From contig JAPPLU010000060.1 in the NCBI GenBank assembly GCA_028874075.1, positions 279,281 to 343,280 of the forward strand: DNA of 64,000 nucleotides, written 5' to 3'. How positions within the stretch are numbered: the stretch's first letter is position 1; each line of letters opens with the position of its first letter. Positions 10,308 through 49,837 of the stretch are shown piece by piece. Position numbers and translations under genes: made by a program. Below the pieces are notes generated by a model that did not search any database, had not been told where the DNA came from, and worked only from the letters and a program-made list of their open reading frames with translations. This DNA is from Chloroflexota bacterium. GTDB lineage: Bacteria > Chloroflexota > Dehalococcoidia > Lucifugimonadales > UBA3495.

Positions 10308-10315
10308 GCTAGTCC

Positions 10316-11077: not shown

Positions 11078-11112
11078 CGGTTGCAGATATTGAACCGGTT
11101 TCGGAGGCACGA

Positions 11113-11848: not shown

Positions 11849-11853
11849 CGACG

Positions 11854-13002: not shown

Positions 13003-13103
13003 GGCTGCTCTCCACCTGAATTTTGGTACTATGTCTATTTTATCCTCTCTCTGCTAAAATCGGTTCACATTGCCTTCAGATGGTGAAAATGGGAGGTGGT
13101 TCC

Positions 13104-14447
13104 TTGCCGTCCAAGGAAGAACTCAAGGTCCAGGTATTTGATGCCATCGACGCCCGCGCCGATGAGTTGGTAAACCTGGCCCAGACCATACTGAAGAACC
13201 CTGAGCCCGGGTTCAGAGAGGTGAAAACCTCCCAGCTGGTCTGTAACACCCTGGCGGGAATGGGTATTCCTTTCCGAAGCGGGTTGGGCTTGACCGGTGT
13301 GCGTGCCGACCTTCTGGGCGGCAGTCCAGGGCCTACCTTTGCGCTGCTGGGTGAGCTGGATTCCCTGATTGTCAACGAACATCCCTATGCCGACTCCACC
13401 ACCGGAGCAGCGCATGCTTGTGGCCACCATTGCCAGATTGGCATGCTGCTGGGCGCGGCGATAGGGTTGAATCAGCCCACCGTTCTTTCTGAATTGAGTG
13501 GCCGCATTTCCCTGATTGCGGTGCCGGCCGAAGAATACATTGAAATTGAATACAGAGACTCCCTGCGCCGGGAAGGCAAGATTGAGTTTCTGGGCGGCAA
13601 ACCCGAACTAATCAAGCTGGGTGAATTCGACGACGTAGACCTGGCTATGATGGTCCATACTACCAGCACCGTTGAGGAAGGCAAACTGTGCATCAGCGGC
13701 ACCAACAACGGTACTGTGGCCAAGAAAATCCAGTTCCTTGGGAGGGGTTCCCACGCTGGCGGGTCTCCGCACTTGGGCATTAATGCCCTTAACGCTGCAA
13801 CATTGGCCCTCTCCGCCATCCACTATAACCGCGAAACCTTCCGCGATGCCGACACGATACGGGTCCATCCCATCATCACTAAGGGTGGTGAGGCCGTCAG
13901 CGCCGTTCCCGCCGAGGTTCGAATGGAAACCTTCGTACGGGGGAAAACTCTGGATGCCATTTTGGATGCCAACAAGAAGGTGGACCGCGCCCTGAGAGCC
14001 GGCGCTCTGGCGGTAGGGGCCGGCGTGAGAATTCAGACCATCCCGGGTTATATGCCCCTGGCACAGAACAGCCAGATGAACGAGATTTTCGGCCCCGTTG
14101 CGGCCCAATTGGTAGGCGCGGAGGGTGTGGGGCACGTAGCCCATCGCACCGGCTCCACCGACATGGGAGACATTAGCCAGATAATGCCCGCTATTCACCC
14201 CTACGTTGGTGGCGCCACCGGGCTGGGGCACGGAGCAGATTACGTAGTTCAGGACTACCAGTTGGCGGTGATTACGGCGGCTAAGGCCATGGCCGCTACC
14301 GTCGTAGATCTGCTGGCCGACGGGGCCAGGTCCGGGAACAAGGTGGTGGCGGAGCATCGCCCTGAAATGACTCGGCCCGAATATCTTAAGTTTATGCGGT
14401 CTCTGGCCAGTGAACAGACTTTCGAGGCGGAAAACAATGTCAACTAG
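13104..14447 (+). CDS. M20-family amidohydrolase, paralog 1
   Basis: ORF 13023..14447 with the metal-binding segment GAAHACGHHCQIGM. I placed the start at TTG 13104, which is preceded by GGGAGGTGG and aligns with the N-terminus of paralog 2. ATG 13080 and ATG 13089 are alternatives. Confidence 0.8.
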   Translation: MPSKEELKVQVFDAIDARADELVNLAQTILKNPEPGFREVKTSQLVCNTLAGMGIPFRSGLGLTGVRADLLGGSPGPTFALLGELDSLIVNEHPYADSTTGAAHACGHHCQIGMLLGAAIGLNQPTVLSELSGRISLIAVPAEEYIEIEYRDSLRREGKIEFLGGKPELIKLGEFDDVDLAMMVHTTSTVEEGKLCISGTNNGTVAKKIQFLGRGSHAGGSPHLGINALNAATLALSAIHYNRETFRDADTIRVHPIITKGGEAVSAVPAEVRMETFVRGKTLDAILDANKKVDRALRAGALAVGAGVRIQTIPGYMPLAQNSQMNEIFGPVAAQLVGAEGVGHVAHRTGSTDMGDISQIMPAIHPYVGGATGLGHGADYVVQDYQLAVITAAKAMAATVVDLLADGARSGNKVVAEHRPEMTRPEYLKFMRSLASEQTFEAENNVN

Positions 14448-15783
14448 AGAAGAACTGAAGAAACGCGCTTGCGCCGCCATTGACCGGCATCGGGACGAGC
14501 TTATCGGAGTTTCCCGCCAAATTCTGAACAATCCGGAGCCCGGCTTCAGTGAATACAAGACTTCCCAGCTTGTCGCTGATAAGTTTGACGAGATGGGTAT
14601 CGGTTACCGGCGTGGCTTGGCCATGACGGGAGTAAAAGGCCACGTTTCCGCCGGTGGAGGTTCGGGGCCCAGAGTAGCGGTTATTGGAGAGTTGGACTCG
14701 CTAATAGTTAACGAACATCCCCATGCCGACGGGGAAACCGGCGCCGCCCATGCCTGTGGCCACCATTGCCAGATAGGAATGATGCTTGGCGCCATCCGAG
14801 GCCTGACCCAGCCCGATGTGCTTTCCGAACTTTCCGGAGAACTGGTTCCCTTCGCGGTGCCTGCTGAGGAGTTCATTGAAGTAGCCAGACGGCTGCAGCT
14901 TCGGGAGGAAGGAAAGCTCGAGTTTATGGGCGGCAAACAGGAACTCATCCGCCTCGGCGAATTCGACGACGTGGATATGGCCATGATGTGCCATACCGCG
15001 AGCGATATGGGTGAGCATAAGTTTGCGGTCGGTGGAACGAGCAACGGTCACGTAGTTAAGTATGTGCAGTTCCTGGGGCGGGGCGCCCACGCTGGCAGCG
15101 CCCCGCACATGGGTGTTAATGCTCTCAACGCCGCGTCCTTTGCTCTCCAGGCCATTCACAGCAACCGGGAGGTGTTTCGGGGAGAAGACACTGTGCGGGT
15201 GCACGGGATAATGACCAAGGGTGGGGAGGCGGTAAACGCCGTACCTGCTGACGTTCGCCTGGAATGGAGGGTCCGTTCTGCAACGCCCAAGGCAGTGGTC
15301 AAGAATTCAGCCATTGTAGACCGGTGCTTCAAGGCAGGCGCGCTGGCGGTAGGAGCTCAGGTGAAGATAACCAATATTCCTGGCTATTTGCCTATGAAAC
15401 ACGACACCCACATGCAGGAGTTGTTCCGCCAGAATGCCGCGTCCTTGCTCGGCGAGCCCCGCACCCTGGTGATTCCCGGTCGCCGTAACCGGGGCGGGTC
15501 CACGGACATGGGAGACTTGAGCCACCTGATACCTGTCTGTCACCCCTATGCCGCTGGCGCGGTTGGTTCTGGCCACAGCAAGGAATATCTGATTACGGAT
15601 TACGATGCCGCCGTCATTAATCCCGCCAAGATCATGGCCATGGTTGTAATTGACCTCATGTCAGAGGAAGCCAAAAAGGCAAGGGAAGTGATAAGCTCGC
15701 ACCGTCCCGCTATGAAGAAAGATGCATACCTGCGCTTTCAACGCGAGCGAGCGGAAGTAGTGGAGTTCGATGGCGCTCTATAG
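14437..15783 (+). CDS. M20-family amidohydrolase, paralog 2
   Basis: This is the internal ATG of ORF 14410..15783 (MSTREELKKR...). It is colinear with paralog 1 (ELDSLIVNEHPHADGETGAAHACGHHCQIGM) and overlaps paralog 1 by 11 nt. Confidence 0.8.
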   Translation: MSTREELKKRACAAIDRHRDELIGVSRQILNNPEPGFSEYKTSQLVADKFDEMGIGYRRGLAMTGVKGHVSAGGGSGPRVAVIGELDSLIVNEHPHADGETGAAHACGHHCQIGMMLGAIRGLTQPDVLSELSGELVPFAVPAEEFIEVARRLQLREEGKLEFMGGKQELIRLGEFDDVDMAMMCHTASDMGEHKFAVGGTSNGHVVKYVQFLGRGAHAGSAPHMGVNALNAASFALQAIHSNREVFRGEDTVRVHGIMTKGGEAVNAVPADVRLEWRVRSATPKAVVKNSAIVDRCFKAGALAVGAQVKITNIPGYLPMKHDTHMQELFRQNAASLLGEPRTLVIPGRRNRGGSTDMGDLSHLIPVCHPYAAGAVGSGHSKEYLITDYDAAVINPAKIMAMVVIDLMSEEAKKAREVISSHRPAMKKDAYLRFQRERAEVVEFDGAL

Positions 15784-26633: not shown

Positions 26634-27872
26634 TTGAAGGCTGAAATCCTTTCTATCGGCACAGAACTTCTGATGGGCGAACTGACGGATACCAATGGTT
26701 CCTGGATTGCCACTCAACTGCCTCCCCTGGGCATTCAGCTCCAGGGCATTTCCATAGTTGGAGACGAACTGACGGCGCTAGCGGAAGCTTTCTCCCGGGG
26801 GCTGCAGCGTTCCGATTTCATTTTCACTACGGGGGGCCTGGGTCCAACCCAGGATGACCTTACCCGGGAAGCGGTAGCTGCCGCCCTGGGTGAGACCCCC
26901 ACTGTTCAACAGGAGGTCGTCGACAACCTGGAACGGTACTTTGCCGGCAGGGGCATGACCATGCCCTCCCACAACATAAAGCAGGCGCACCTCATCCCAT
27001 CGGCCCAGTTTGTGCGCAACCGCAATGGCACCGCTCCGGGTTGGTGGGTAGAAAGCGAGGGCAAGGTCATCGTCTGTATGCCGGGTCCTCCGGGGGAAAT
27101 GCAGCCGATCTGGCACGAGGAAGTGGCGCCCCGGCTTAGAGATTTGGTGGATGATGAGGTAACGATAACCAGGAACATCAAGACGCTGGGGATGTCGGAG
27201 GCGGCCATTGACGAGGAAATTTCCGAGTTCTTCGGCCAAGAGAACCCCTATCTCGGCATATACTCCAAGGCAGACGGGATCCACCTGAGAATCATCGCTC
27301 GCGCCAGGGACGAACAGGTTGCGCGGGAAATGATTACACCGGTAGAAGCGGCTATCACTGACCGGCTGGGACCATACATTTGGGGATACGATTCGGAGAC
27401 TCCGGAACAGGCCGCCGGTCAAGCGCTGAGCGAGTTTGGTCTGACCCTGGCGACAATGGAGTCTTGTAGCGGAGGCTTTCTCGCTAACAGCATTACGGAC
27501 ATTCCCGGCAGTTCCAGCTATTACCGGGGAGGCGTTATCGCCGTCAATTCGGAGATGTTGGTGGCCGGTGGGATCCCGCCACTGGTGCTGGAAGAGCATG
27601 GGCTGATGAGCCCAGAAACTGCCATGGCCATGGCCCTCGCCGCCCGGACCGGCATGGCCGCAGACTATGGCGTCGCAATTAACGGTGTCATCGGGCCGGA
27701 ACCGGTCGAAGACAAGCCGGTGGGGCAGGTGTTTGTGGCAATCGCAGGCAGAAAGGATACTCGGGAGTTGCAGTTTCGCACTCCCCCTCGTCGTATCGTC
27801 ATCAAGAGAAGGGTGGCTAACACGGCCCTGACCGAACTGCGCAAACTGGTCGTCGCGGAAAACGGCGGCTGA
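26634..27872 (+). CDS. cinA: CinA family protein (MoCF-binding domain + PncC-type NMN deamidase domain)
   Basis: 412 aa with a TTG start after AAGGAGG. The N-terminus is MKAEILSIGTELLMGELTDTNG and the C-terminal domain has TMESCSGGFLA. Confidence 0.85.
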   Translation: MKAEILSIGTELLMGELTDTNGSWIATQLPPLGIQLQGISIVGDELTALAEAFSRGLQRSDFIFTTGGLGPTQDDLTREAVAAALGETPTVQQEVVDNLERYFAGRGMTMPSHNIKQAHLIPSAQFVRNRNGTAPGWWVESEGKVIVCMPGPPGEMQPIWHEEVAPRLRDLVDDEVTITRNIKTLGMSEAAIDEEISEFFGQENPYLGIYSKADGIHLRIIARARDEQVAREMITPVEAAITDRLGPYIWGYDSETPEQAAGQALSEFGLTLATMESCSGGFLANSITDIPGSSSYYRGGVIAVNSEMLVAGGIPPLVLEEHGLMSPETAMAMALAARTGMAADYGVAINGVIGPEPVEDKPVGQVFVAIAGRKDTRELQFRTPPRRIVIKRRVANTALTELRKLVVAENGG

Positions 27873-27915
27873 ACTTGTAGTGTGTTTCCCTCTCCAGTTG
27901 GCTGGATAAACAAAA

Positions 27916-27942
27916 CTGGGGCAGGCGCGAAGCCTGCCCCAG
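27916..27942. terminator. Strong hairpin between convergent cinA and the vWA-operon end
   Basis: CTGGGGCAGGC-GCGAA-GCCTGCCCCAG forms an 11-bp stem. An A-run on the plus-strand 5' side gives a U-run for the minus-strand transcript. Confidence 0.6.
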
Positions 27943-27969
27943 CTACTTTGTGCCTTCGGCTCCTGTGGA

Positions 27970-30900
27970 TCAGGCGGTCAACTGCCGGTAGAGCATGGGC
28001 AACCTTTCCGGCAGCGCCCAGATGTCGCCCAGCACCTCGTAACCCATGTCGCCGCACATTTCCTGCAGGTAGTCGTGGCCCGCCTTGTCGACTGTCAGGC
28101 AGAAGGGAGTTATGTCCTTTCGCTTGGCTTCCAGCAAGGCCATGTGGGTGTCGTGGACCGCGTATTCTTTCTCCACGCCCTCCCGGCTGTAACCCCGGTC
28201 CTGGGGCCGGCCGTCGCTGATCAGGAACATTATCTTGGTCGGTGAGTCCTGATTTTCCAGCTTGGTAATGGCGTGGCGAATTGCGCTGCCCATACGGGTG
28301 GCGTGGAGCGGCGTGATCTTGTCGATGCGACGCTTAATTCGCTCGCTGAAGTTCTCCTCGATGTCCTTGATTACGTAGAACTCCACGTTCTCACGGCCAT
28401 AACCGGAGAACCCGTAGATACCGTAGTTATCTCCTATGGATTCCAGCGCATGGATGAGCAGCGCGGTGCTCTCCTTTTCCAGGTCGATTATGCGCTTGTA
28501 GTGGCGGCGCACCAACCCTTCCCGACGGCGGCGGAGCCATACCATGTATTCCACCGGGTCATCCGGCGCGTCCCGGTCATCCACCGTATGGCGGCCTTCG
28601 TCGATGGCCTCTGCGGTGGAAGCGCTCATGTCCAGCAGGAATACTACTGACACATCGCGTTCAATCTTGTTGCGGCGCCAGTAGATCTTCTCGTCGGGTG
28701 GCACCTTCATCCGGATATCCGCCGCAGCCTCCAGCGCAGCGTTCAGGTCAATATCCTCGCCGTCAACCATGCGGTAAATCTTCCGGAAGGTTTCGGGCAT
28801 GATCAACTCGAACTGCCGCTTGATGTGGCTGAGCAGAGTCGAGTAGTTCTTCAGAGAGTCGTTGTAAAAGTTGGAGTCGCCCTCATCCAGGGACTTTTCC
28901 TTTACCACGCACCAGCGGGGCTTATAATCGTTGGCCCGGAAGTCCCACTCGTCGTAGACGTAGGTCTTGGGCTCGCGGGCTTCCAGTTCGCCGCCCTGAT
29001 CGTCGTCGTGGAGGAGGGGACCGTAGCCCTGGCCGGGTTGGGAGTTGGGAGGAGGGACTCCGGCCTCTTTCATAATGTTCTGGGCGAAAGTACTGGTGCT
29101 GTTGTTAATGTCGCCCTGTTCCGCATCGAGCTCCAGCTCGGCACTGTCCTGCAGAAGCTGCTCCAGCATTTCCTGGGACAGAGGTTCGCCCTCGCCCTGC
29201 TGGTTCTGGTCCATTTGAAGCTTGGTCAGCAGCTGGACCATCTCGGGCTTGAAGTCGCCTCGGTAGTCAACCGGTTCCGGTGAATCGTAGGGGTCTCCCT
29301 CGCCCGCATCACCGGAAGAGTCCTGAGAAGCCTGCAGTTTGTCCAGCAAGGACTGGAACTCCTCCTCGGAGAACTCCCCGGGTTCTTCCATGTCTTCAGG
29401 TTCCCATTGGTCTTCCGGCTGGGTTTCATTTTCCAGGCGGGAAATAATCTCGTAGGCCCGGAGGGTTGCTTCGGCCGTGTCTTCCACGTTGGCGGAAACG
29501 CTGCGTAGCACGTAGAGGATTTGGGCCAGCATGGTAGCTTCTTCCCGGAAGTCGACAGGTATGGGCAGGTTGTTGAATTGGTCCAGGCTCATCCGAATAA
29601 GCAGCTCAACCAGCGCTTCCTGCAGAGGCAGGTCCTCTACCTCCGGTCGGCGGGACAGCGTATCCGATTGCACATCTATCGCAGTTCGGCGGATGCCGGG
29701 GTATTCCGCCTTTATGCGATAGTCCAGCCGGCAGTCCTCCAGAACTGTGAAAATGTCGAAGGCCAGCCGTCGGTTGTCGAACAGGCTCAGGAAACGGCCA
29801 ATGTCGGTATAAGCGCGCATCTGGCCGTCGGGTTCCATATCGCCCAGCAATACGTCGTCGCTAATCTGCTGGGCTCCCCGTTCACGTTCCAGGGCGTAGC
29901 GGCGCTCCTCCTCGAACTGCAGGGCCGGCTTGCTGAAGTCGTAGAAGAAACTGCCGAATTCCAGGTGGCCTACCTGGTGGGTGGCCACAACCTTAAACCA
30001 GGAAAAGTTTTGGCTCTTGTCCTGGTAGTGGTCAACGACGGGGGGGAGGAATACCTTGGTTCCGTCAGTGGACGCAGTGTCCTCGTCCACCCAACCGATG
30101 TTTCGACGCACCAGTTCCTGGGTATTCATAACCTCGATGGGAGAACCGGACAGGGCACGACAGTACAGGCGCACCACGCCCTTGACCCGGTCGAGCTCCA
30201 GGCTGGAGGAGAGTGTTTCCAGCAGTGACTCCGAGGTGTTGGATTCCACTTTGAAGAAGGCGATGCCGCTCTCCGGATTGTCCTTGAGTAGTTGGACGCC
30301 ATGGTGGAACCAGGTGTCCAACTGGTTCAGGGTGACCCGGTGCGTCACGCTATCCAGGCTCTTGAGGAAACAGGGGACCGCTTCCGGAGTTACGGCCAGC
30401 AGGCCCTCGCAAAGATCCAGAATGTGCGCCTGGGATCCGGTGGGAATCTGGCTTAGTGCATTGCTGCCGTCGGTCAGGAAGCGGGAGGTATCCCGAATGC
30501 CCACCTTGGTCAATCGTTCTCCCAGCTTCAGGAAACGGCTGGTCTGACCCTCGTCTACCTGCTGCAAAGCCTTGGGGGCCACCTCGAAACAACTCTTGAC
30601 CTCGCGCCAGTTGCCATCGGAAAGGGCGCGGCACATGGCCAGGAATGCCTCACGCTCACGGCCCATAGCCGGCAATACGTCCTTGCCAAGAGTGAGACAT
30701 TCCACTGCGATATCGTAGGACTTGTAGGACAGGGCCTCTACCAGCGATGCGAAGACCTCTACGTCCCAAAAGGGTAGGCTGCGAATCAGGTCGGGGCTGA
30801 CTTCGAAGAACCGGCTTGACAGGGTGCTGGACTTCCAGGTGCCCTTGTAGAGGCTGCGGCCCAGGCCCGCCCAGCGTGGTATGTACTGGGGCCGCAGGTT

Positions 30901-31230
30901 GGAGACTATGGAAGGGCTGGCCTTGAAGAAGGAAACGGCCAGGGCCGGTGAGTCCTGGGACAAATAGGTGCCACACCTCGCCCATTGCATGAACGAGGGA
31001 AAGGCCAGAGAGCGGGCTACCTTGGGGCAGACCCGGTAGTATTCTACTGCCGATTCCCAGGAGCGTACGGTCTGCCCGGCTATGGCAGAGCCTTCCTTGG
31101 CCCAAAGGAGGAGTTCTTCGGAAGAGAATGACGATTCCATTGCCTCAAGGGACTCACGATAGGCATCCAGAACCGCGGGGGGGAATTTACCCAATTCGGT
31201 TTCCAGTTCATCAAAGGGAGCGTTGCTCAA
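27970..31230 (-). CDS. Large vWA-domain protein, CbbO/NorD-like adaptor of CbbQ/NorQ-type AAA+ ATPases
   Basis: 1086 aa with a TTG start overlapping the Nudix stop (TTGA). It has N-terminal helical repeats, a central HQVGHLEFGS segment, an acidic linker and a C-terminal vWA with MIDAS DMSAS (28618..28632) and LISDGRPQD. Confidence 0.8.
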   Translation of the reverse strand: MSNAPFDELETELGKFPPAVLDAYRESLEAMESSFSSEELLLWAKEGSAIAGQTVRSWESAVEYYRVCPKVARSLAFPSFMQWARCGTYLSQDSPALAVSFFKASPSIVSNLRPQYIPRWAGLGRSLYKGTWKSSTLSSRFFEVSPDLIRSLPFWDVEVFASLVEALSYKSYDIAVECLTLGKDVLPAMGREREAFLAMCRALSDGNWREVKSCFEVAPKALQQVDEGQTSRFLKLGERLTKVGIRDTSRFLTDGSNALSQIPTGSQAHILDLCEGLLAVTPEAVPCFLKSLDSVTHRVTLNQLDTWFHHGVQLLKDNPESGIAFFKVESNTSESLLETLSSSLELDRVKGVVRLYCRALSGSPIEVMNTQELVRRNIGWVDEDTASTDGTKVFLPPVVDHYQDKSQNFSWFKVVATHQVGHLEFGSFFYDFSKPALQFEEERRYALERERGAQQISDDVLLGDMEPDGQMRAYTDIGRFLSLFDNRRLAFDIFTVLEDCRLDYRIKAEYPGIRRTAIDVQSDTLSRRPEVEDLPLQEALVELLIRMSLDQFNNLPIPVDFREEATMLAQILYVLRSVSANVEDTAEATLRAYEIISRLENETQPEDQWEPEDMEEPGEFSEEEFQSLLDKLQASQDSSGDAGEGDPYDSPEPVDYRGDFKPEMVQLLTKLQMDQNQQGEGEPLSQEMLEQLLQDSAELELDAEQGDINNSTSTFAQNIMKEAGVPPPNSQPGQGYGPLLHDDDQGGELEAREPKTYVYDEWDFRANDYKPRWCVVKEKSLDEGDSNFYNDSLKNYSTLLSHIKRQFELIMPETFRKIYRMVDGEDIDLNAALEAAADIRMKVPPDEKIYWRRNKIERDVSVVFLLDMSASTAEAIDEGRHTVDDRDAPDDPVEYMVWLRRRREGLVRRHYKRIIDLEKESTALLIHALESIGDNYGIYGFSGYGRENVEFYVIKDIEENFSERIKRRIDKITPLHATRMGSAIRHAITKLENQDSPTKIMFLISDGRPQDRGYSREGVEKEYAVHDTHMALLEAKRKDITPFCLTVDKAGHDYLQEMCGDMGYEVLGDIWALPERLPMLYRQLTA

Positions 31231-31820
31231 GACGTCAGCCCCTCCTTTTTCAAAGGCTCTTCCAATATTTCCAGGAATTGCTGCAGAATCTTGGCGGTGG
31301 CGCCGAAGACCACGTGCTCTTCGTGGACATAGGAATAGACCGTGGTTAGTCCTTCACCGTTCCAGCGCGTTTCCCAGCGGACGTTAGCGGGGTTGTAAAG
31401 GTTCAAGATGGGGACTTCCAAAACTTCGGCAATTTCCAGGTCGCTGGGCCGAAAGGGATAGGAATGGGGTATTTCGCCCACCAACACCCTGACCCCGAAC
31501 CCGCTCCGGGTTACGGCATCGTCCAGTTCCCCCAGGATGGTTACGTCCGATGGGTCGATACCCATTTCTTCGTGGGCTTCTCGGAGGGCAGTGGCCATAA
31601 AGTCGCCGTCTTCAGGGTCCCTGGCCCCGCCCGGGAAAGAAATTTCACCCTTATGATGCTCAACCAGTTCCGACCGCTTGTTGAGCAAGACGCAGCATTC
31701 CCCATCCTTGGGATACAAGGTGATCAAAACGGCAGCAGGCATCAGGCTTTCGTCGGTCAAGCTCCACTTGGACCGCCGTGCCAGTGCCTGCCTGACCAGG
31801 TCTGGGATGGATAAACCCAT
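31227..31820 (-). CDS. Nudix hydrolase, CoA diphosphatase type (NUDT7/PCD1/NudL pattern)
   Basis: 197 aa. LLNKRSELVEHHKGEISFPGGARDPEDGDFMATALREAHEEMGI combines the CoA-type upstream motif with the Nudix box. Confidence 0.8.
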   Translation of the reverse strand: MGLSIPDLVRQALARRSKWSLTDESLMPAAVLITLYPKDGECCVLLNKRSELVEHHKGEISFPGGARDPEDGDFMATALREAHEEMGIDPSDVTILGELDDAVTRSGFGVRVLVGEIPHSYPFRPSDLEIAEVLEVPILNLYNPANVRWETRWNGEGLTTVYSYVHEEHVVFGATAKILQQFLEILEEPLKKEGLTS

Positions 31821-31828
31821 CTAAACCT

Positions 31829-32749
31829 CTATTCGAAGATGGAAGAAACCACCTCTTCAACGCTGCGCTGCAGTTCGGCCTCATCGGTAAGGGTCCACAC
31901 AATGGCCACCTGGCAGGCGCGTCGGGGGGGAATGCCTTCCCTCATCAAGCGCCCGGCGTATATCAAGAGGCGGGTGCTGGCGCCCTCGGCAAGCCCGTGG
32001 TCGCGCAGATTGCGGACCTTTTCACCCAGCTTGGCCAGCGCGCTTGCTTGCTCTTCCGAGCAGCCGCTCTCTTTCTGGACAATCTCCGCCTCGATGTCGG
32101 CGGGAGGATAGTCGAACTCTACGGAAATGAAGCGCTGGCGAGTGCTGTGCTTCAGGTCCTTAAGGGCGCTCTGATAGTGAGGATTGTAGGAAATACAGAG
32201 CAGGAACCGGTCGTCGGCCTCAATGATCTGCCCCGTCTTTTCAACGGGCAAAATCCGGCGGTGGTCCGTCAGGGGGTGGATCAGCACCGTGGTGTCCTTA
32301 CGGGCTTCCACCACTTCGTCCAAATAGAGGATCGCGCCGGCTTTCACCGCACGGGTCATCGGTCCGTCGATCCATCGGGTTCCTTCTGAGTCCAGGAGGT
32401 ACCGTCCCACCAGGTCACTGGCGGTAAGGTCTTCGTGGCAGGCGATGGTAACCAGGGGTACGCGAACTTCGCCTTCCCGCAGATCCTGAGGGGGAAGTCC
32501 ACTATCCAAGGGGCGCACTACAGTCATCGGGCGCCCAAGTTTCCAAGCCATATATTCAACGAAACGGGTCTTTCCACAACCCGTGGGCCCTTTGAGCAGC
32601 ACGGGAATGTGCTGGTTATAGGCAGCCGTAAAGAGTTCCAGTTCATCGCCTACCGGGCGATAGTAGGGCTCACTGCGAACCAGAAATTCTTCAATAGCAT
32701 ACTCTTTGTATTGGGGTTCATTCTGTTCGGACTCAACCGCTTCTACCAT
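31829..32749 (-). CDS. CbbQ/NirQ/NorQ-family (MoxR-class) AAA+ ATPase
   Basis: 306 aa with Walker A GPTGCGKT (32568..32590) and Walker [26 protein letters not shown] is typical of CbbQ/NorQ. The start shares TAATG with the coaE stop. Confidence 0.85.
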
Positions 32750-33360
32750 TATGTTCGTTCAATCCTTCCTTCTACTCTGCGTTTCCAAACTTCCCGGACC
32801 GCAGTTTCCAGGTCTTCCAGTTCGCCGTCGTTCGCTATTACCTCATCGGCACGGCGAGCCCGGTCCTCCGCTGGCATCTGTGAGGCAATTCGCTTACGAA
32901 TCTCCTCAGGAGCGAAACCGTTCCGCTGTTGCAGCCTTTCTACCACCCTTTCCGCCTGGGACTCGGTGGTCCATACTTCGCCAACCAGCGCGTCCCAACC
33001 GGCTTCAAACAGAACCGCCGCTTCAACCACGGCTACGTCGGTCCCTTGATTCGCCAGGCTCTCCAGTTTCTCCTTGACAATGGCGGCCATTCTGGGATGC
33101 ATTATCCCGTTCAAGGTCGCCAACTGCTCTGGATCTGCGAAGACAATGCCTCCCAGCTTCCGGCGGTCTATCTCACCGTTTTCCTGGAGAATGTCTTCTC
33201 CGAAAGTCCTGACCACTTCCTGCCAGGCTTCGGAATGGGGAGTGTAGGCCTCGTGCCCCACCTGGTCTGCGTTGATTACAGTTGCTCCCAGTTGCTCCAG
33301 CAGCCTGGACACTTCGGTTTTGCCGGTGCCGATTCCACCGGTCAGGCCAATGACTAACAT
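32749..33360 (-). CDS. coaE: Dephospho-CoA kinase
   Basis: 203 aa. [17 protein letters not shown]...INADQVGHE...[11 protein letters not shown] is typical of CoaE. Confidence 0.9.
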
Positions 33361-33609
33361 TCAGGCCCCATTCTTGAAAACACTCCGGCAATTCTAACAA
33401 GGGGGTTACTATGGGTCAACCTTGTCGGGTTGCATCAGAGAACGGGCGCCACGCCGGTTATACAATACGGAACCACAATTCTTGGCAAAGATATTGTGGA
33501 ACAGAGGAGATTGTTCCGAGTCTTACCAATGCTGAAGTCCCAGGTTAAGCTCTTGCTTTGCCCATGGACTGAATAAAGGTGATGGTCTATTCACACAAGG
33601 AATGAGGTG

Positions 33610-34278
33610 TCATATTTCGATTTTCATTTCTCCCCATCGATCGAGGTAGGCTTCCTGCAACTGCCGAAACTTTTCCCGGTAGTCGACAGTGTGGATGGGG
33701 CTAGTGGTCATTATGACGGCGTCTTCCCGATTATCCGAATAGTAGTTTTTCCTGATACCAACTTCCTTGAAGCCATATTTCTCGTAGAGCCTCTGCGCGA
33801 TGAAGTTGGAAACCCTGGCTTCCAGCGTCAGGACCGTTGACCCGTGTTCCAGGGCAACACGAACAGAACCTATCAAGAGCAGTTCGCCGATGCCGTTGCC
33901 GCGCAACTCCTCCCTGACGGCGATCTCGGTTATATGGGTCTCATTCCCCTGGAACCAGAGGCCGACGTAACCGGCAATATCTCGGTCCAGGGATTCGGCA
34001 GCAGGCTGCCGGCCGACCATTCCTCTGACACCCTTAACCATCCTGCCCCACAGGGATGCATCCGCCGCCCCTGCGGGTGTCTGGGTCAACTCAGCTGGAA
34101 CCTGTTCCGGTTCAGCGTCTGCGTCTTCCGGCTGGAAGGCAACCAGGTACCGGGCGTACTTGTTGTTGACATCGCGTTTGAGGGATGCACCCATAAACAG
34201 GGGCGCGAAAGCCTCACGCTCGATTTCGATCACCTGATCAATGTCGTCCGTCGTCATCCTGCGGATTTCTACGTCCAT
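33610..34278 (-). CDS. rimI: GNAT N-acetyltransferase, RimI-like, with a ~50-aa acidic/low-complexity insertion
   Basis: 222 aa with the acetyl-CoA motif LRGNGIGELLL. The insertion QPEDADAEPEQVPAELTQTPAGAADAS... lies between core strands. Confidence 0.7.
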   Translation of the reverse strand: MDVEIRRMTTDDIDQVIEIEREAFAPLFMGASLKRDVNNKYARYLVAFQPEDADAEPEQVPAELTQTPAGAADASLWGRMVKGVRGMVGRQPAAESLDRDIAGYVGLWFQGNETHITEIAVREELRGNGIGELLLIGSVRVALEHGSTVLTLEARVSNFIAQRLYEKYGFKEVGIRKNYYSDNREDAVIMTTSPIHTVDYREKFRQLQEAYLDRWGEMKIEI

Positions 34279-34484
34279 CGCTGCAACTAATCCTGACGCT
34301 AGAGTAGGCCACAGACCCTAAAATGGATTTGCCGAATTTTAGCATAGGGGCCGGTGATTGCAATTTAGGAGGGGTGCTTTGGGTTGGACCGAGGGCGCCG
34401 TGGCGGCAACCTTTATGGTCCGCATGCCAGTGCAAACAGAACTCGCCAATGCATGTCTTAGTTGCCCATTGCTGCAGGATTCGT

Positions 34485-35741
34485 TCAGGTTGAAATGGGG
34501 ATGGATACTTTGCCATAGACGCCGTCGTAACCTGGTTCAACCTGAATGTCGCCGGCTCTGACCTTGATAATTGCCGAGGCCAGGGCTTCACCACCGATGG
34601 CAGCGAGTTCTGATTCGGTCGCCCCGAGGAGAGCGCGCAGCTCTGAGCCTGCGGCGGAAACCACGTTGATGTAAATGCGCTGTACTCCCTTGGTGTTGGG
34701 ACCGCGCCCCAGTACGGCCGAGATTATGTCGACGAGCGGAACCATACGAACAAAGGGGGGGCGGCCTGCTTCGGACAGAACTGCGTTGGCAGGGAGGGAT
34801 GCGGCGCTGGCGTTCGAGAAGGTCTGGGGCCTTCCGGACTGCGCTTCGTCTCCTGCCGACTGCAGGTTGAGGGAGCGGTGGAGCACACCTAGAGTCAGAG
34901 GGCGCCCGCATTGGGGGCAGGCGTCTCCTTCGCGGATGCTGTGGTCTGGGTGCCAGCTGACACCGCACTTGCGGTGGCCGTCGAAGTGGTATTTGCCCTC
35001 TTCGGGGTACATCTCCACCGTGAACTCGACTCGATTATGGGTAAGGCCTTGTTGAAGCCCGAGAAAAGTGGGTTCGCCCTGGAATATGGTCAGCTCACGG
35101 CCAAGGCGGGGCAGGGAATGAGCGTCGGAGAAGGAAACGATGGCCTTGTCCTCCAGGTCCGGCACCTGCCAGTTCATCTGAGGGTCGCTGGAGAGGCCGG
35201 TCTCGATGGCGGGAACGTGGCCGACCATATCGCCAAAGGCATCGGAGAGGCTGTCGAAGCCGGACTTTGAACCGAAGATGCCGTACCAGGGTGTCCAGGC
35301 ATGGGCGGGCACGACGAGGCAATCCGGGTTAGTGTCCAGGGTCAGGTAGACTGCGTCCCTGGCGGAAAGGGAGAGAGTGGGCCTGCCGTCAGACTGGATA
35401 TTGCCATACCTGGCGTATTGTTCTGTCAAGGCTTCAGCGGTGGCAATGTCGGGGGCGTAGATGAGCAAGTGCACCCTGCGCCCTCGGCCGTCCTGCTTGA
35501 AGACGCAACTTACCTCGGTGCCCATCACGAAGTTGACGTCACTGTAGCGGTAGGCGCCATCGGGGCCTTCGTCGAGGCTGTCCTTCAGCCGCTGAAGCCA
35601 AAGGGGGTGGGTGAAGTCCGCAGTGGCGAGGAGGTCGATTCCCTTGAGCCGTGCGCAGGAAGCCAGGTTGTCCAGAGTCAGGGCGGAACTGGTTGCGTAA
35701 GCGTAGGAGGAGTGCAGATGAAGGTCGGCGACGAAGGACAT
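34485..35741 (-). CDS. Endonuclease Q (PHP-domain, deaminated-base DNA endonuclease)
   Basis: 418 aa. The N-terminus ADLHLHSSYAYATS is PHP-type, the Zn-finger segment is CPQCGRPLTLGVLHR, and the overall layout is colinear with archaeal EndoQ. Confidence 0.75.
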   Translation of the reverse strand: MSFVADLHLHSSYAYATSSALTLDNLASCARLKGIDLLATADFTHPLWLQRLKDSLDEGPDGAYRYSDVNFVMGTEVSCVFKQDGRGRRVHLLIYAPDIATAEALTEQYARYGNIQSDGRPTLSLSARDAVYLTLDTNPDCLVVPAHAWTPWYGIFGSKSGFDSLSDAFGDMVGHVPAIETGLSSDPQMNWQVPDLEDKAIVSFSDAHSLPRLGRELTIFQGEPTFLGLQQGLTHNRVEFTVEMYPEEGKYHFDGHRKCGVSWHPDHSIREGDACPQCGRPLTLGVLHRSLNLQSAGDEAQSGRPQTFSNASAASLPANAVLSEAGRPPFVRMVPLVDIISAVLGRGPNTKGVQRIYINVVSAAGSELRALLGATESELAAIGGEALASAIIKVRAGDIQVEPGYDGVYGKVSIPIST

Positions 35742-36781: not shown

Positions 36782-38158
36782 CTACCCTAGCGCAGCCAGC
36801 AATCCCTTCAGAAAATGGGCTTCCTGGTCGGGAAGCACGGTACGAGGGTCGAGCAGGACGCGGTCGTCTTCAATGCGGCCGATGATGGGAGGGTCTACGG
36901 TACGCATCCTCTGCATCAGCCCTTCGGGGCCACCGGGCAGGGAACCGCAATCCAGGGAGAGGACCCTGGTGGGCAGGGTTTCGCCCGGGAGACTACCGCC
37001 GCCAATGGCTGACCGGCTACTATCTACATTGGCTCCGGACAAACCCCGGTCGACCACAGCTTTCTTCCATGTTTCAGCCCTTTCTTCTAGCAATTGTACC
37101 GGGGCCGAAATCATCCGCCAAATGGGGATCTCCCTTTCGGCTTCGCCCCGCAGGTAATGCATCAACGTAGCAATGAGAGAGGCCAGGCTCATCTTGTCGA
37201 TGCGAAAAGCGCGGGCCAAGGGGTGCCGCTCCAGGCGGTTGACCAGGTCGCGGGAGCCTACGACGATGCCTGCCTGAGGGCCACCCAGCAACTTGTCCCC
37301 GGAGAAGAACGTCAAGCCCACGCCGGCCGCCACACTTTCCTGGGGGGTGGGCTCGTGGGCCAGGCCGTAATTCTCCGTGGGCAACAGCGCGCCGCTGCCA
37401 ACGTCGTGAAGAACCGGTATGCCGGTCCTGGCGCCAAGGTCAACCAGCTCTGCCGGTTCAACAGAGGCCGTAAAACCTTCAACGCGGAAGTTGCTGGCGT
37501 GGGCCTTGAGGAAGGCGCCCGTCTCCGGGGTTATGGCGGTCTCATAGTCGCGAACATAGGTGCGGTTGGTAGTGCCCACGTCTACCAGGATAGCGCCGCT
37601 CTGCGAGAGAACATCGGGTACGCGAAAGCCACCGCCAATCTCCACCGCTTCGCCACGAGAAACAACGACCTCTTTGTCGGCGGCCAGGGCGGAAAGGCCC
37701 AGCAGCACGGCGGAGGCGTTGTTGTTGACTACCAGGCCGGCCTCGGCTCCGGTTACTTCCTGGAGCAGGTTCTGAAGATGGGCCTGCCGGGAGCCGCGCC
37801 GGCCGTTATCCAGGTCAAACTCCAGGTTGGAGTAGCCCTGGGCGGCGTTAATGGCCGCTTCGGTGGCGGCGCGACTAAGCGGGGCACGGCCCAGGTTAGT
37901 ATGGATGACCACCCCGGTGGCGTTGATTACCGGTTGGGGAGCCGGGCGGTTCATTTTTTCTACGACTTGTCGGGTAGCCCGTGCCACCTCTTCTACAGAG
38001 GGAGCGTCGGCGCCCATCATCACGGAGGAACGTGCCCGGTCGAGTTCCTGCCGCACTAGCGACAGAATCCAGTCGCGGCTGTAGGCCTTGACTACCCATG
38101 CCAGTGTGTCGGACGACAGCACGCGTTCCACACTGGGTATGTTGCGAAGCTGGGTCAA
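36782..38158 (-). CDS. selA: L-seryl-tRNA(Sec) selenium transferase
   Basis: 458 aa with a TTG start. The N-terminus is MTQLRNIPSVERVLSS, the PLP-lysine segment is FSGDKLLGGPQAG, and it is colinear with SelA. Confidence 0.9.
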   Translation of the reverse strand: MTQLRNIPSVERVLSSDTLAWVVKAYSRDWILSLVRQELDRARSSVMMGADAPSVEEVARATRQVVEKMNRPAPQPVINATGVVIHTNLGRAPLSRAATEAAINAAQGYSNLEFDLDNGRRGSRQAHLQNLLQEVTGAEAGLVVNNNASAVLLGLSALAADKEVVVSRGEAVEIGGGFRVPDVLSQSGAILVDVGTTNRTYVRDYETAITPETGAFLKAHASNFRVEGFTASVEPAELVDLGARTGIPVLHDVGSGALLPTENYGLAHEPTPQESVAAGVGLTFFSGDKLLGGPQAGIVVGSRDLVNRLERHPLARAFRIDKMSLASLIATLMHYLRGEAEREIPIWRMISAPVQLLEERAETWKKAVVDRGLSGANVDSSRSAIGGGSLPGETLPTRVLSLDCGSLPGGPEGLMQRMRTVDPPIIGRIEDDRVLLDPRTVLPDQEAHFLKGLLAALG

Positions 38159-45472: not shown

Positions 45473-46585
45473 ATGAGTGAATCCTATCCCATGCAGCGGG
45501 CGGTTGAACTGGCGCGCCGTGCCCTGGGCAGCACCAGTCCCAACCCGGCTGTGGGGGCAGTAGTCGTCAAAGACGGGTCGGTGGTGGGAGAGGGTTACAC
45601 GCTGCCGCCGGGCCAACGACATGCCGAAATTGGCGCCCTGGAGCAGGCTGGCCAGCTTGCCGAGGGGGCCACCCTATTTACAACTCTGGAACCTTGCTGC
45701 CACTACGGCCGGACACCTCCCTGCACCGACGCCATTATTGCTGCCGGTATCCACGAGGTTAAGATAGCCGTCATCGACCCCAACCCGCTGGTGGCCGGCA
45801 AGGGCATGGAAAGGCTGCGCGAGGCAGGAATTGCAGTCACGATGGAAACCAAGGAGGGGGCGGACGAACTCTACGAAGCCTTCGGCAAGCACATTGCCAC
45901 TGGGTTGCCCTTCGTAACGGCCAAGTATGCCATGAGCCTGGACGGCAAGATTGCCACCTACACCGGCGACTCCAAATGGGTTACCGGGCCCCTGGCCAGG
46001 GCCGAAGTCCAGCGGATGCGCCAGGAATGCGATGCCATTATGATAGGCATCAACACGCTGCTGGCGGATGACCCACAGCTTACCGTCCGGGGCGATGACG
46101 GACTGCCGCTGGTACGGCAGCCCCTGCGGGTGGTGCTGGACAGCCATTGCAGGACGCCGTCGGCATCCAGAATGTTGCGAGAGCCGGGTACTACGCTAAT
46201 TGTTACTTCCAGCGACGCGCCGGGCAGCGAAATTGAGCGACTCCAACGGGCTGGCGCAGAGACCTGGACCAGTCCCCTGCACGAGCCGGGGATGTTGGAA
46301 ATGGGAGAAGTCCTGGTGGAACTGGGCCATCGCGGCGTGGTAAGCCTGCTGGTGGAAGGCGGTGGAATCACACTGGGTTCCCTATTCGACGACGGGCTGG
46401 TGGACAAGGTGAAGGTCTTCATTGCCCCGGTTATAATCGGCGGCATGCAGGCCGCTTCCCCCATAGAAGGCCACGGCCCTGAGTTCATGTCGCAGGCATG
46501 GCAGGTGGAAGGTGCGGAAATTCAGCAGATAGGGCCGGACTGGTTGATTACGGGCTATCCCGGCAGGAACTCCGGCGGGGATTAG
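45473..46585 (+). CDS. ribD: Bifunctional riboflavin biosynthesis deaminase/reductase
   Basis: 370 aa with the deaminase zinc motifs HAEIGAL and TLEPCCHYGRTPPC, plus a C-terminal reductase domain. Confidence 0.9.
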   Translation: MSESYPMQRAVELARRALGSTSPNPAVGAVVVKDGSVVGEGYTLPPGQRHAEIGALEQAGQLAEGATLFTTLEPCCHYGRTPPCTDAIIAAGIHEVKIAVIDPNPLVAGKGMERLREAGIAVTMETKEGADELYEAFGKHIATGLPFVTAKYAMSLDGKIATYTGDSKWVTGPLARAEVQRMRQECDAIMIGINTLLADDPQLTVRGDDGLPLVRQPLRVVLDSHCRTPSASRMLREPGTTLIVTSSDAPGSEIERLQRAGAETWTSPLHEPGMLEMGEVLVELGHRGVVSLLVEGGGITLGSLFDDGLVDKVKVFIAPVIIGGMQAASPIEGHGPEFMSQAWQVEGAEIQQIGPDWLITGYPGRNSGGD

Positions 46586-46803
46586 CTACCATTCTAATCA
46601 TTCCGCATTTGGCCGATGCCAAAGGCGTTAAAAGCTCAAGGCGACAGCACTCCAAGGCGGCAGTGTAAACGGATTAAAGGAGTGTTGACCTTGACAGGCG
46701 TACCAGGCAAGCTAGAGGTTCCCGCCAGGGCGGGAACTATGGGAGCGCCACAAGGCTGAAGCGCAATAGGCCTGTATCATCCAGCGCACCAGGTGGTCAG
46801 TTT

Positions 46804-47394
46804 ATGTTTACCGGTATTGTTGAAGAGGTCGGGACCGTTGCGGTATGCGGCGAGTACGGGCTTACCATGTCAGCCAGTGGGGTCATGGAAGACTTGAAGC
46901 TGGGGGACAGCATCGCCGTAAATGGTACTTGCCTGACGGTGGTGGAGCTTAAAGGGGGGCAGTTCAGGGTGGACCTGGCTCCTGAGACTCTGCGCCGCAC
47001 TTCCCTGGGCGAACTCTCGGTGGGCAGTGTTGCCAACCTGGAACGCCCCCTGGCGGCGGGTGACCGGCTGGGTGGCCACATCGTTCAGGGGCACGTTGAT
47101 GCCACCGGCCGCCTTATGTCCATCAGGCCAGAGGGCGACTGCTATATTTTCCGGGTGCGGGTACCCAAGCGGCTAATGCCCTACGTAGTGGAAAAGGGGT
47201 TCATCGCCGTGGACGGAATCAGCCTGACTGTGGTAAAGCGGGGGGCTGCATCGTTCACCATTTCTGTGATACCATACACGTTCTCCCACACTAATCTGAA
47301 GGACAAGGCAGTGGGAAGCAGAGTCAACCTGGAAGTGGATATACTCGCCAAGTACGTCGAAAGCTTGATGTTGACGCAGGCAGGAACGATTTAA
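46804..47394 (+). CDS. ribE: Riboflavin synthase
   Basis: 196 aa. The N-terminus is MFTGIVEEVGTV, and the duplicated barrel is visible in the sequence. Confidence 0.9.
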   Translation: MFTGIVEEVGTVAVCGEYGLTMSASGVMEDLKLGDSIAVNGTCLTVVELKGGQFRVDLAPETLRRTSLGELSVGSVANLERPLAAGDRLGGHIVQGHVDATGRLMSIRPEGDCYIFRVRVPKRLMPYVVEKGFIAVDGISLTVVKRGAASFTISVIPYTFSHTNLKDKAVGSRVNLEVDILAKYVESLMLTQAGTI

Positions 47395-47454
47395 GAGGGT
47401 TTAGGGGCAGGGCCGGTTTCAAAAGCAGAAAATTCGAGGAGACTGACAGACGCT

Positions 47455-48741: not shown

Positions 48742-49837
48742 CTAGCTGACCTGGGAGATCAAGTAGGCTTCGATGAAGTCGTCCAGGGCGCCATCCAGGA
48801 CGGCGTCCGGGTTGGTGCTCTGGAAATTGGTGCGGTGGTCCTTTACCGACTTGTAGGGGTGAAGGACGTAGCTCCGGATCTGGTTGCCCCATTCAGCAGC
48901 GACGCGTTCACCTTTCAACCTGGCCAGTTCTTCCGCTCGCTGCTCGTTCTGTCGGGCCAGCAAGCGGGCGGTAAGGATGCGCATGGCGTATTCCCGGTTC
49001 TGGTGCTGGGACCGTTCCGTCTGGCACGAAACGACAATGCCTGATGGGACGTGGGTCAGGCGCACGGCCGAGGCCACCTTTTGGACGTTCTGTCCCCCGG
49101 GGCCACTGGACCGGAAGGTATCCATCTTCAGGTCTTCTGATCGGACGACAACATCTTCCTCTTCAGCGGCGGCCGGCAGGACTTCCACCTGGGCGAAAGA
49201 GGTGTGGCGAAGGTTGTTGGGATCGTAGGGAGACAGGCGTACCAGGCGATGTACGCCCCGCTCGGAGTTGAGGTAGCCGTAGGCGAAGGGCCCGCCAATT
49301 TCCAGGGTTGCACTGCGCAGGCCGGCCTCGTCGCCGTAGGCCAGATCCATGACCTGGGCAGGGCGGTTTTGCACTTCCGCCCAGCGTGCATACATTTTCA
49401 GCAGCATTTCCGCCCAGTCCTGGGAGTCGGTGCCACCGGCGCCAGAATAGACGGACACGATGGCGGGGCGGTCGTCGTAGGGGCCGGCCAGGGTGAGGGA
49501 GATCTCTTCGCGGGAGAGGGTGCGGGAAAGCTGGATGGCGTCGGTCTCTATCTGGGCCAGCAAGGACTCATCGCCGTCTTCGGTGGCGAGTTCGGTCAGT
49601 TCCAGGAGGGTTGACGCCTGGGATGCCATATCCCGCCAAAGGCTGACGGTTTCCTTGAGCCGGCCGAGGGTGCGCATTTCCTGCTGGGCACGGCGAGGGT
49701 CGTCCCAAAAACCCGGTTGGGATGCTTCCCGCTCCAGGCGGGTAATATCTGCTTCCTTGTCGGGGAGGTCAAAGACGCTCCACGACGGAATCGATCTTCT
49801 GAACCAGGGCGCTCAGTTCCTGTTTGAGGTCATCCAT
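48742..49837 (-). CDS. prfB: Peptide chain release factor 2, expressed via a programmed +1 frameshift
   Basis: Frame 0 is ATG 49837 MDDLKQELSALVQKIDSVVERL followed by TGA at 49771..49769. The +1 frame continues DLPDKEADITRLEREASQPGFWDD... into ORF 48742..49677 (GGQ motif SSGPGGQNV). AGGAG lies upstream of the ATG. Confidence 0.9.
49768..49774 (-). other. prfB +1 frameshift site CTT TGA C
   Basis: The minus strand reads GTG GAG CGT CTT TGA CCT. This is the canonical CUU UGA C slippery/stop context, with an internal SD-like GGAG 3 nt upstream. Confidence 0.85.

Follow-up and report, generated by a model that had tools for sequence, protein, structure and literature searches.

The stretch of DNA analysed here (hereafter, the window) comprises 64,000 nucleotides (nt) of contig JAPPLU010000060.1, positions 279,281 to 343,280, from a sponge-associated Chloroflexi bacterium. 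Its minus strand holds a genuine, conserved transcription unit of four genes, which encode a dephospho-coenzyme A (CoA) kinase, an AAA+ ATPase, a Nudix hydrolase and a giant VWA protein. On the basis of homology, it can be stated with high confidence that the AAA+ and VWA proteins form a machine of the CbbQ/CbbO-NorQ/NorD type; as judged from their sequences, they represent a distinct giant-O subfamily of it. To our knowledge, few chaperones are as poorly understood as MoxR AAA+/VWA pairs, for which only a handful of clients have been described (Rubisco, nitric oxide reductase, carbon monoxide dehydrogenase and chelatases). The elements of the operon, in window positions and in the direction of transcription, are the following:

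33391..33419, minus strand: promoter-like site TTGACC-17-TAGAAT with extended TG (consensus match alone)
32749..33360, minus strand: coaE, dephospho-CoA kinase, 203 amino acids (aa) (PF01121, TIGR00152)
31829..32749, minus strand: CbbQ/NorQ-class MoxR AAA+ ATPase, 306 aa (AAA_5 and CbbQ_C)
31227..31820, minus strand: predicted CoA-diphosphatase-type Nudix hydrolase, 197 aa (PF00293, closest solved structures)
27970..31230, minus strand: giant CbbO-like VWA adaptor, 1086 aa, TTG start (hhalign to CbbO, VWA domain)
27914..27944, minus strand: intrinsic-terminator-like hairpin (fold energy against shuffles)

The junctions were read on the minus strand between positions 27850 and 33500. The coaE stop and the AAA+ start have one base in common, within TAATG at 32749; a gap of 8 nt separates the AAA+ gene from the Nudix gene; and the Nudix stop overlaps the VWA start in TTGA (31230-31227), with AAGGAGGGG located 8 nt upstream. 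The promoter-like site lies about 30 nt 5' of the coaE start codon, and the region contains three such sites against a shuffle mean of 2.6, which is not above chance. At the opposite end, the hairpin has a stem of 11-13 bp with 9 G-C pairs followed by the T-run TTTTGTTT, folds with -36.1 kcal/mol (z = -4.4; 0 of 200 shuffles fold equally well) and is common to the convergent cinA gene. The original prediction had described four chained minus-strand genes with the TAATG, the 8-nt gap, the TTGA and the terminator, and all these details were found again upon rereading the sequence. In most of about 130 loci, the intergenic distances are overlaps or gaps of at most 30 nt, start positions being approximate. 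In addition, contigs from Logan for a sponge metatranscriptome run extend over each of the four genes, and one of them spans the coaE/AAA+ junction, carry-over of DNA being possible. The stop/start overlaps, the promoter-like and terminator sites at the two ends, the tight spacing across loci and the junction-spanning contig are the grounds for treating the four genes as one operon.

As a separate observation, in metatranscriptome run X5 (window 27000-34500) contig depth is about 15-21 over coaE and the AAA+ gene and about 0-5 over the Nudix and VWA genes. Relatives with 90-99% identity are the source of these contigs, and their depth says little about expression.

The AAA+ protein is the most readily classified component of the pair. 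It contains the domains AAA_5 (PF07728, 8e-28) and CbbQ_C (PF08406, 8.6e-30), both above their gathering scores, and among solved structures it matches CsoCbbQ 5c3c (7e-102), CbbQ 6l1q (2e-96) and NorQ 9qhd (1e-86), the next-best PDB matches being the AAA modules of midasin (1e-39). It carries a Walker A motif, GPTGCGKT, and a Walker B motif, LYLDEV, of which GPTGCGKT and YLDE are invariant in the alignment. On these matches it is assigned to the CbbQ/NorQ (CGN) subfamily of MoxR AAA+ ATPases, and the domains, together with the close CbbQ/NorQ and CbbO/NorD matches of the two proteins, bear out the type of AAA+/vWA pair originally proposed. A 22-aa insert after the Walker A helix (aa 76-97; window 32459..32524, minus strand) is absent from the solved CbbQ and NorQ proteins. 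At this same site the insert is of variable length (approximately 10-25 aa) in the AAA+ partners of giant-O proteins, and there is none in L168, L170 and L085, three shorter-adaptor or distant loci. In 64 loci with about 76% VWA identity, the median identity is 86% for the AAA+ protein, 76% for the VWA protein, 59% for coaE, 60% for the Nudix and 39-67% for most neighbours (stated as overall spans, 82-90% for the AAA+ protein against 35-70% for neighbouring genes); only an ABC (ATP-binding cassette) ATPase (78%) equals the conservation of the AAA+/VWA pair in the neighbourhood.

The identity of the giant VWA protein requires a longer argument. Along its 1086 residues the following parts can be distinguished, the MIDAS (a metal-ion-dependent adhesion site) lying within the last third:

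30535..31230, minus strand: aa 1-232, predicted family-specific helical-repeat extension (hhalign, AlphaFold2 (AF2))
29431..30534, minus strand: aa 233-600, CbbO-type N/middle domain with the motifs TDGxxIxLP, THQxGHxEFG and EDxRxD (hhalign, alignment)
28969..29430, minus strand: aa 601-754, acidic linker of low confidence (AF2 model)
27973..28968, minus strand: aa 755-1086, YDEWD beta-hairpin and VWA domain (NorD alignment, Foldseek)
28618..28632, minus strand: MIDAS motif DxSxS, D867-M-S-A-S871 (56-sequence alignment)
28486..28614, minus strand: finger insert of the VWA domain, aa 873-915, including RRRREGLVRRHYKR (alignment to P0332)

Pfam recognises in this protein the VWA domain only (residues 915-1062); the N-terminal 743 residues give no Pfam match even at E < 1, and NCBIfam gives none for the whole protein. 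The last 330 residues align with NorD (1.6e-36 to 9qhd_G), including the YDEWD segment and the C-terminal tail. A family profile of 56 sequences was also compared by hhalign with P0371, a protein of 760 aa that came up among the weakest matches when a distant family member served as the query for homologues. Since its gene lies in the order LysR / Rubisco form II - CbbQ - CbbO, P0371 is regarded as a bona fide CbbO. The comparison reaches a probability of 100% (E 4e-50, 676 aligned columns) and pairs family positions 233-1080 with CbbO residues 66-760. From this alignment, the giant VWA protein is recognised as a CbbO homologue to which some 230 N-terminal residues, a long acidic linker and a longer finger have been added. 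Thus, of the giant vWA protein initially described, the size of 1086 aa is borne out, and the protein is a full-length CbbO homologue with extensions, not a wholly new architecture. The finger is approximately 31 aa longer than in P0332, a relative of NorD/CbbO size, and it is probably the element that enters the AAA+ pore, by analogy with the NorQD structure obtained by cryo-electron microscopy (cryo-EM), in which the NorD finger goes into the pore of the AAA+ ring (PMC13036017).

Structure prediction and conservation are consistent with this assignment. A 14-sequence alignment gave an unusable AF2 model (predicted local distance difference test, pLDDT, of 43), and the cross-phylum alignment of 56 sequences gave a model with a pLDDT of 79.7, the N-terminal 600 residues exceeding 85. 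In this model Foldseek recognises the VWA domain alone, the best match being the NorD VWA domain 9qh6_G (E 5e-15, TMt 0.79-0.81). In the 56-sequence alignment the MIDAS residues D867, S869, S871, T978 and D1006 are invariant or nearly so across phyla, and the YDEWD segment, the finger, the C-terminal LPxLYRxLT tail and the middle-domain residues H418, E424, E498, D499 and D503 are likewise kept. A profile search of the full database returned 4,460 clusters at 50% identity, many of them full-length (1,000-1,100 aa, 26-48% identity). The profile-based homologue search was swamped by one clade, and a single distant query performed better. Short representatives of approximately 700-790 aa were considered as CbbO intermediates and discarded; they are 33-44% identical from residue 340 on and more probably represent truncated gene calls.

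The two remaining genes both code for enzymes whose sequence similarities point to CoA metabolism. CoaE matches PF01121 over its full length (1e-51) and the TIGR00152 equivalog with 173.2 bits against a cutoff of 65.55, so it is annotated as a dephospho-CoA kinase at the equivalog level. It is 45% identical to the CoaE encoded downstream of the pair in locus L081 (see below). The Nudix protein (PF00293, 2e-12) has a Nudix box with the catalytic REx2EE, and its nearest solved structures are the CoA diphosphatases NUDT11 (9nxm), DR1184 (1nqy) and NUDT7, with a loop spacing that aligns gap-free to NUDT11 and NUDT7. An LLxxRS...G...FPGG segment precedes the box. Compared with the NuCoA signature LLTxR[SA]x3Rx3Gx3FPGG (PROSITE PS01293), this segment preserves the frame together with R-S, G and FPGG at their places, with N instead of T and E instead of the second R; DR1184, a proven CoA pyrophosphatase, likewise deviates at the second-R position. 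By relatedness, the protein appears closest to the CoA-diphosphatase type.

The association of these genes was followed across genomes. A pattern scan of GTDB species genomes, made with one narrow pattern, detected relatives in at least 224 species-level genomes. The best 80 of these (73-99% identity) are all metagenome-assembled genomes (MAGs) of Dehalococcoidia/SAR202, several of them from sponges, and the order coaE-AAA-Nudix-VWA is kept wherever the contig extends far enough. A metagenome scan seeded with more distant members added 80 marine loci, in which the VWA protein is 37-95% identical to that of the window. In this marine set the upstream flank varies (opposite-strand selA, rimI and others), as does the downstream flank (cinA, a DUF4340/GldG ABC cluster, transaldolase-PGI, a major facilitator superfamily transporter, an acyl-CoA dehydrogenase), and the four-gene block persists. 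Counted over the 129 loci that had enough upstream DNA to be informative, the arrangements are as follows:

coaE-AAA-Nudix-VWA: 114 loci, VWA identity 42-99%
coaE-AAA-VWA, Nudix absent: 5 loci, VWA identity 41-49%
AAA-Nudix-VWA, coaE absent: 3 loci, VWA identity 41-42%
PHP-AAA-VWA-coaE: 3 loci, VWA identity 31%
AAA-VWA only: 4 loci, VWA identity 26-29%

The neighbourhood survey suggested together with the original prediction thus finds coaE and the CoA-type Nudix beside the pair in 114 of 129 loci with changing flanks; loss of gene order in related genomes had been named as what would speak against it, and the order is kept down to 42% VWA identity.

Outside this predominant arrangement, other partners accompany the pair. 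In a clade that NCBI records name Candidatus Tectomicrobia (VWA identity about 31%), three loci with differing downstream genes have the order sigma-70 / PHP/PHP_C phosphoesterase - AAA - VWA - CoaE. Their PHP/PHP_C proteins, of 210-221 aa, are encoded directly 5' of the AAA+ gene (L081:8344-9009, L083:3965-4597 and L084:4407-5048). In locus L169 (VWA identity 41%, cinA downstream) the order is CoaE-AAA-Metallophos_2-VWA, with a Metallophos_2 protein of 199 aa in the Nudix slot (L169:7391-7990; ENA ERZ28763718 ctg92792) and coaE upstream with a 4-nt overlap. In a marine metagenome locus, a 463-aa protein with CoA_binding and Succ_CoA_lig domains is inserted between the AAA+ and Nudix genes (L165:1951-3342); it resembles the alpha subunit of an ADP-forming acyl-CoA synthetase, and a DnaJ gene follows the VWA gene of this locus. 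In a gammaproteobacterium (CP170502.1, Pseudomonadota MAG; L167, approximately 5749-14945), an enoyl-CoA hydratase gene immediately precedes the pair, within a packed same-strand cluster of alpha/beta hydrolase, enoyl-CoA hydratase, AAA+, VWA (994 aa), glyoxalase, hydrolase, thiamine pyrophosphate enzyme and PdxA-like genes, with ApbA and two acyl-CoA dehydrogenases downstream. This cluster is a possible source of client candidates.

Several further genes near the pair deserve mention in their own right. In the window, rimI (33610-34278, minus strand; TIGR01575, 111 bits, above the cutoff), whose product uses acetyl-CoA, lies directly upstream of the operon, and a gene for a PHP-like protein of 418 aa is found at 34485-35741 on the minus strand (TIGR00375 family, below the cutoff). 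Both hold their position in many, not all, SAR202 loci. The 418-aa protein was considered as the counterpart of the Tectomicrobia PHP protein and rejected: it matches the TIGR00375 family, and none of the Chloroflexi loci gave a match to the Tectomicrobia PHP protein. In locus L168 (DATARW010000055.1), the giant VWA gene is followed, in the same orientation, by a gene whose 1354-aa product has many WD40/beta-propeller repeats (L168:11504-15568).

No gene for a known client accompanies the operon, in agreement with what had been noted initially for the 64 kb. A Pfam search of the 45 large open reading frames (ORFs) across the window returned no Rubisco, nor, cox or gvp domains and housekeeping functions only: 2-oxoacid dehydrogenase E2/E3, tatC, lutABC, riboflavin genes, selA, rimI, thrS, tilS, tsaD, an ABC-2 transporter, cinA and others. 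Similarly, tblastn with a Rubisco large subunit gave no match in the window, nor in the 2.8 Mb that 170 related loci make up, and the annotated distant loci contain no nor genes.

The reading that we prefer connects the function of the machine with a phosphoesterase and with CoA-nucleotide metabolism, and we give it a probability of roughly 0.45-0.5. Four observations lead to it: the block persists despite changing flanks, the gene of the hydrolase is placed between Q and O with translational coupling, the Nudix is replaced by non-homologous phosphoesterases (Metallophos, PHP), and coaE is adjacent in two different arrangements. The CoA-binding gene within the L165 operon and the enoyl-CoA hydratase gene beside the pair in L167 also speak for a link to CoA. 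In the model developed for CbbQO and NorQD, the Q hexamer engages the finger and tail of the adaptor, and client binding at the MIDAS is coupled to ATP-driven twisting (PMC9976466, PMC13036017, PMC5437159). By homology with these systems, six AAA+ subunits would ring around the finger of one VWA adaptor, which would be held on the ring by its C-terminal tail and its CbbO-like N/middle domain; the MIDAS site, and probably also the N-terminal helical repeats, would grip a client protein, and ATP hydrolysis would twist or stretch the adaptor so that the client is opened. The client would be an enzyme with a tightly bound CoA-derived or other nucleotide-type ligand, which the machine would reactivate or mature; the co-encoded phosphoesterase (here the Nudix, elsewhere Metallophos or PHP) would cleave that ligand, and CoaE would stand at the supply end of the same CoA pool. 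The gene chain, the family assignments, the intact motifs, the conservation, the varying flanks and the exchange of phosphoesterases are read from the sequences; stoichiometry, mode of remodelling and the identity of client and ligand belong to the inferred part of this best explanation. A more specific version, which we consider doubtful, is that the giant-O/Q6 machine pries a CoA-derived nucleotide that has become a dead end (such as oxidised CoA, CoA persulfide or a dephospho species) from an abundant CoA-utilising enzyme, whereupon the phosphoesterase destroys the nucleotide and CoaE refills the pool.

A number of observations weigh against this functional tie. The Nudix is absent from five loci and coaE from three, and in more distant clades (Gammaproteobacteria, Deltaproteobacteria, Acidobacteria and others) the pair occurs with neither coaE nor a phosphoesterase nearby: among these loci, a Deltaproteobacteria MAG has YggS-AAA-VWA, a Pyrinomonadaceae MAG (L168) has AAA-VWA, and two further distant loci also have the pair without such partners. 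In the best-80 Chloroflexi set the wider 20 kb is partly syntenic as well (selA, the ABC transporter, cinA), so that some of the linkage reflects shared ancestry. The Metallophos replacement and the CoA-binding insertion come from one locus each. In NCBIfam, the Tectomicrobia PHP protein resembles CehA/McbA metallohydrolases and also 3',5'-nucleoside bisphosphate phosphatase, weakly and below threshold in both cases. Among the substrate class of the second enzyme is 3',5'-ADP, which is freed by CoA diphosphatases. The window Nudix scores 110.7 bits against PRK10707 CoA pyrophosphatase, below the cutoff of 134, yet this is its best family by a wide margin. Moreover, the CoA-binding client and the destruction of a released CoA species by the Nudix are hypothetical, and coaE with a CoA-type Nudix would be a meaningful CoA-homeostasis pair even if no chaperone stood beside them.

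The strongest alternative is an operon of convenience, which we hold to be a real possibility short of even odds. According to this explanation, the pair matures a client encoded elsewhere, for example by inserting a metal centre into an oxidoreductase as NorQD, CoxDEF and CobST do, and coaE and the Nudix are an unrelated CoA-homeostasis pair under a shared promoter. The known relatives of the pair indeed insert metals or remodel enzymes unrelated to CoA (PMC9976466, PMC13036017), and the conserved H418, E424, E498, D499 and D503 of the middle domain could bind a metal. The distant clades in which the pair lacks coaE and phosphoesterase, the loss of the Nudix or coaE from the block in some Chloroflexi loci, and the partly syntenic, housekeeping character of the region are all consistent with it. 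What it does not account for readily is the position of the Nudix gene, which sits between the two partners and overlaps the start codon of the VWA gene; nor would it predict a Metallophos gene in the same slot in L169, a PHP gene abutting the AAA+ gene in another phylum, coaE adjacent in two arrangements and a block that persists while its flanks vary.

A second alternative, in which the machine acts on CoaE or on the operon's own hydrolase (Nudix, Metallophos or PHP) as its client, appears improbable. It has some precedent: the client of CbbQO is encoded in the same gene cluster, as in the Rubisco-CbbQ-CbbO locus of P0371, and nor and cox clients are likewise encoded beside their Q/O-type chaperones. 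Furthermore, all three alternative partners are metal-dependent hydrolases, which might need loading or reactivation, and across the Chloroflexi and Tectomicrobia clades no neighbours are constant except coaE and a metallo-phosphoesterase. Against this, a 1086-aa adaptor and a hexameric motor devoted to a 200-aa, Mg-dependent Nudix are hard to rationalise, many family members have no such neighbour, and the three hydrolase folds are unrelated, which makes a common recognition surface unlikely.

It is very improbable that the pair simply serves Rubisco as a CbbQO activase, or nitric oxide reductase as a NorQD maturation factor, with the client encoded at another place in the genome. The homology to CbbQ, CbbO, NorQ and NorD is strong, and several database records label homologues as NorD. 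Opposed to it are the lack of Rubisco in the window and in the 170 loci, the 230-aa extension, acidic linker and longer finger that separate the adaptor from Rubisco-linked CbbO, and the presence of the family among housekeeping genes in MAGs of SAR202-type Dehalococcoidia, Tectomicrobia and Acidobacteria. The phylogeny proposed earlier, which asked whether the pair nests within the NorQ/NorD or CbbQ/CbbO clades, goes in the same direction in part: a neighbour-joining tree sets the family apart from the NorD/CbbO-size protein P0332, a reference that has neither Rubisco nor nor genes in view, and Rubisco-linked CbbO, which was compared separately, is without the N-terminal 230 residues. Finally, an anti-phage or conflict system of the MoxR/VWA kind can be rejected: MoxR-VWA pairs do occur in some conflict systems and the Walker-A region has a weak PADLOC match to IetA (1.8e-5), but there is no other PADLOC match, none for the VWA, Nudix and CoaE proteins, and extreme conservation, a stable chromosomal position and housekeeping neighbours are the opposite of defence-island behaviour.

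Taking the favoured functional tie up again, the operon points to an undescribed enzyme-repair or maturation machine. Literature searches on MoxR proteins with dephospho-CoA kinase, on orphan CbbQ/CbbO pairs and on SAR202 with Rubisco found no description of the module or of the giant-O subfamily, and databases name the homologues "VWA domain-containing protein" or give them an automatic "NorD" label. What is known is the CbbQO/NorQD architecture and its probable mechanics; what is new is the extensions of the adaptor, its partners in the operon and the absence of a client gene. MAGs that bear the labels Chloroflexi/Dehalococcoidia/SAR202, Tectomicrobia, Gammaproteobacteria, Deltaproteobacteria and Acidobacteria contain full-length relatives, and in SAR202, abundant bacteria of the ocean and of sponges, the subfamily is tightly joined to CoA enzymes. 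If the link to CoA is functional, it would reveal a new kind of enzyme repair, powered by ATP, within central acyl-CoA metabolism, with a defined set of client candidates. The more specific dead-end-nucleotide model, should it be true, would provide a second independent case of the Rubisco-activase-plus-CbbY logic, outside carbon fixation and widespread in SAR202, Tectomicrobia and their relatives. If the link is co-transcription alone, the family is still a clear orphan with an intact machine and worth a client hunt.

Two further features of the window lie apart from the operon. The release-factor-2 gene (PCRF and RF-1 domains, approximately 48742-49836, minus strand) contains a +1 frameshift site, CTT TGA C, at 49768-49774, 21 codons after the ATG at 49836, and the listed ORF starts at profile position 29 because of this programmed +1 frameshift. 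In addition, a tRNA-Sec gene at 7751-7843 on the plus strand (Rfam RF01852, 67.5 bits), the only Rfam match at gathering level in the whole window, and selA at 36782-38158 on the minus strand (PF03841, 4e-137), 29 kb apart, indicate that the organism uses selenocysteine. The Rfam scan of the window detected no flavin mononucleotide riboswitch before ribD-ribE-ribBA (45473-48663).

Among known systems, the closest are CbbQ/CbbO (Q6O1; Acidithiobacillus, Halothiobacillus) and NorQ/NorD (Paracoccus; Jhaorihella, cryo-EM structures 9qh6 and 9qhd). The AAA+ protein aligns closely along its length with CbbQ, the homology of the adaptor takes in nearly the whole of CbbO with an intact MIDAS, and the AAA+ gene precedes the adaptor gene, as it does for CbbQ and CbbO. 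Unlike the Rubisco operons, the window operon has no Rubisco nearby, a hydrolase gene between Q and O and coaE as a further member, while its adaptor is approximately 330 aa longer and its AAA+ protein carries the 22-aa insert. With NorQ/NorD it shares the NorQ match (1e-86) and an alignable VWA domain, YDEWD segment and tail, and the finger-in-pore mechanism probably applies (PMC13036017); it differs in that norCB is absent from the window and that the N-terminal 750 residues of the adaptor are unlike NorD in length. A more distant resemblance is to midasin/Rea1, which also has AAA_5-type modules and combines an AAA+ ring with an acidic, D/E-rich linker and with a MIDAS domain, a loop of which enters the ring (PMC13036017). 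However, midasin consists of one chain of about 4,900 aa and works on pre-60S particles, whereas in the window the ring and the MIDAS arm are separate proteins and the only ribosomal context is rimI upstream.

With regard to the hydrolase, the window Nudix shares with CoA diphosphatases (E. coli NudL, DR1184, NUDT7/8 and plant NUDT11/15) the Nudix box and, with NUDT11 and NUDT7, the loop spacing; it has the LLxxRS...G...FPGG segment with the changes given above, and differs from them in being embedded between an AAA+ protein and its VWA partner, a setting undescribed for these enzymes. The last comparison, with Rubisco activase and the xylulose-1,5-bisphosphate phosphatase CbbY, is conceptual alone; CbbY has no sequence relationship to these hydrolases. 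The likeness would reside in the combination of a ligand-releasing motor with a ligand-destroying hydrolase, a parallel that the interchangeable Nudix, Metallophos and PHP partners would fit.

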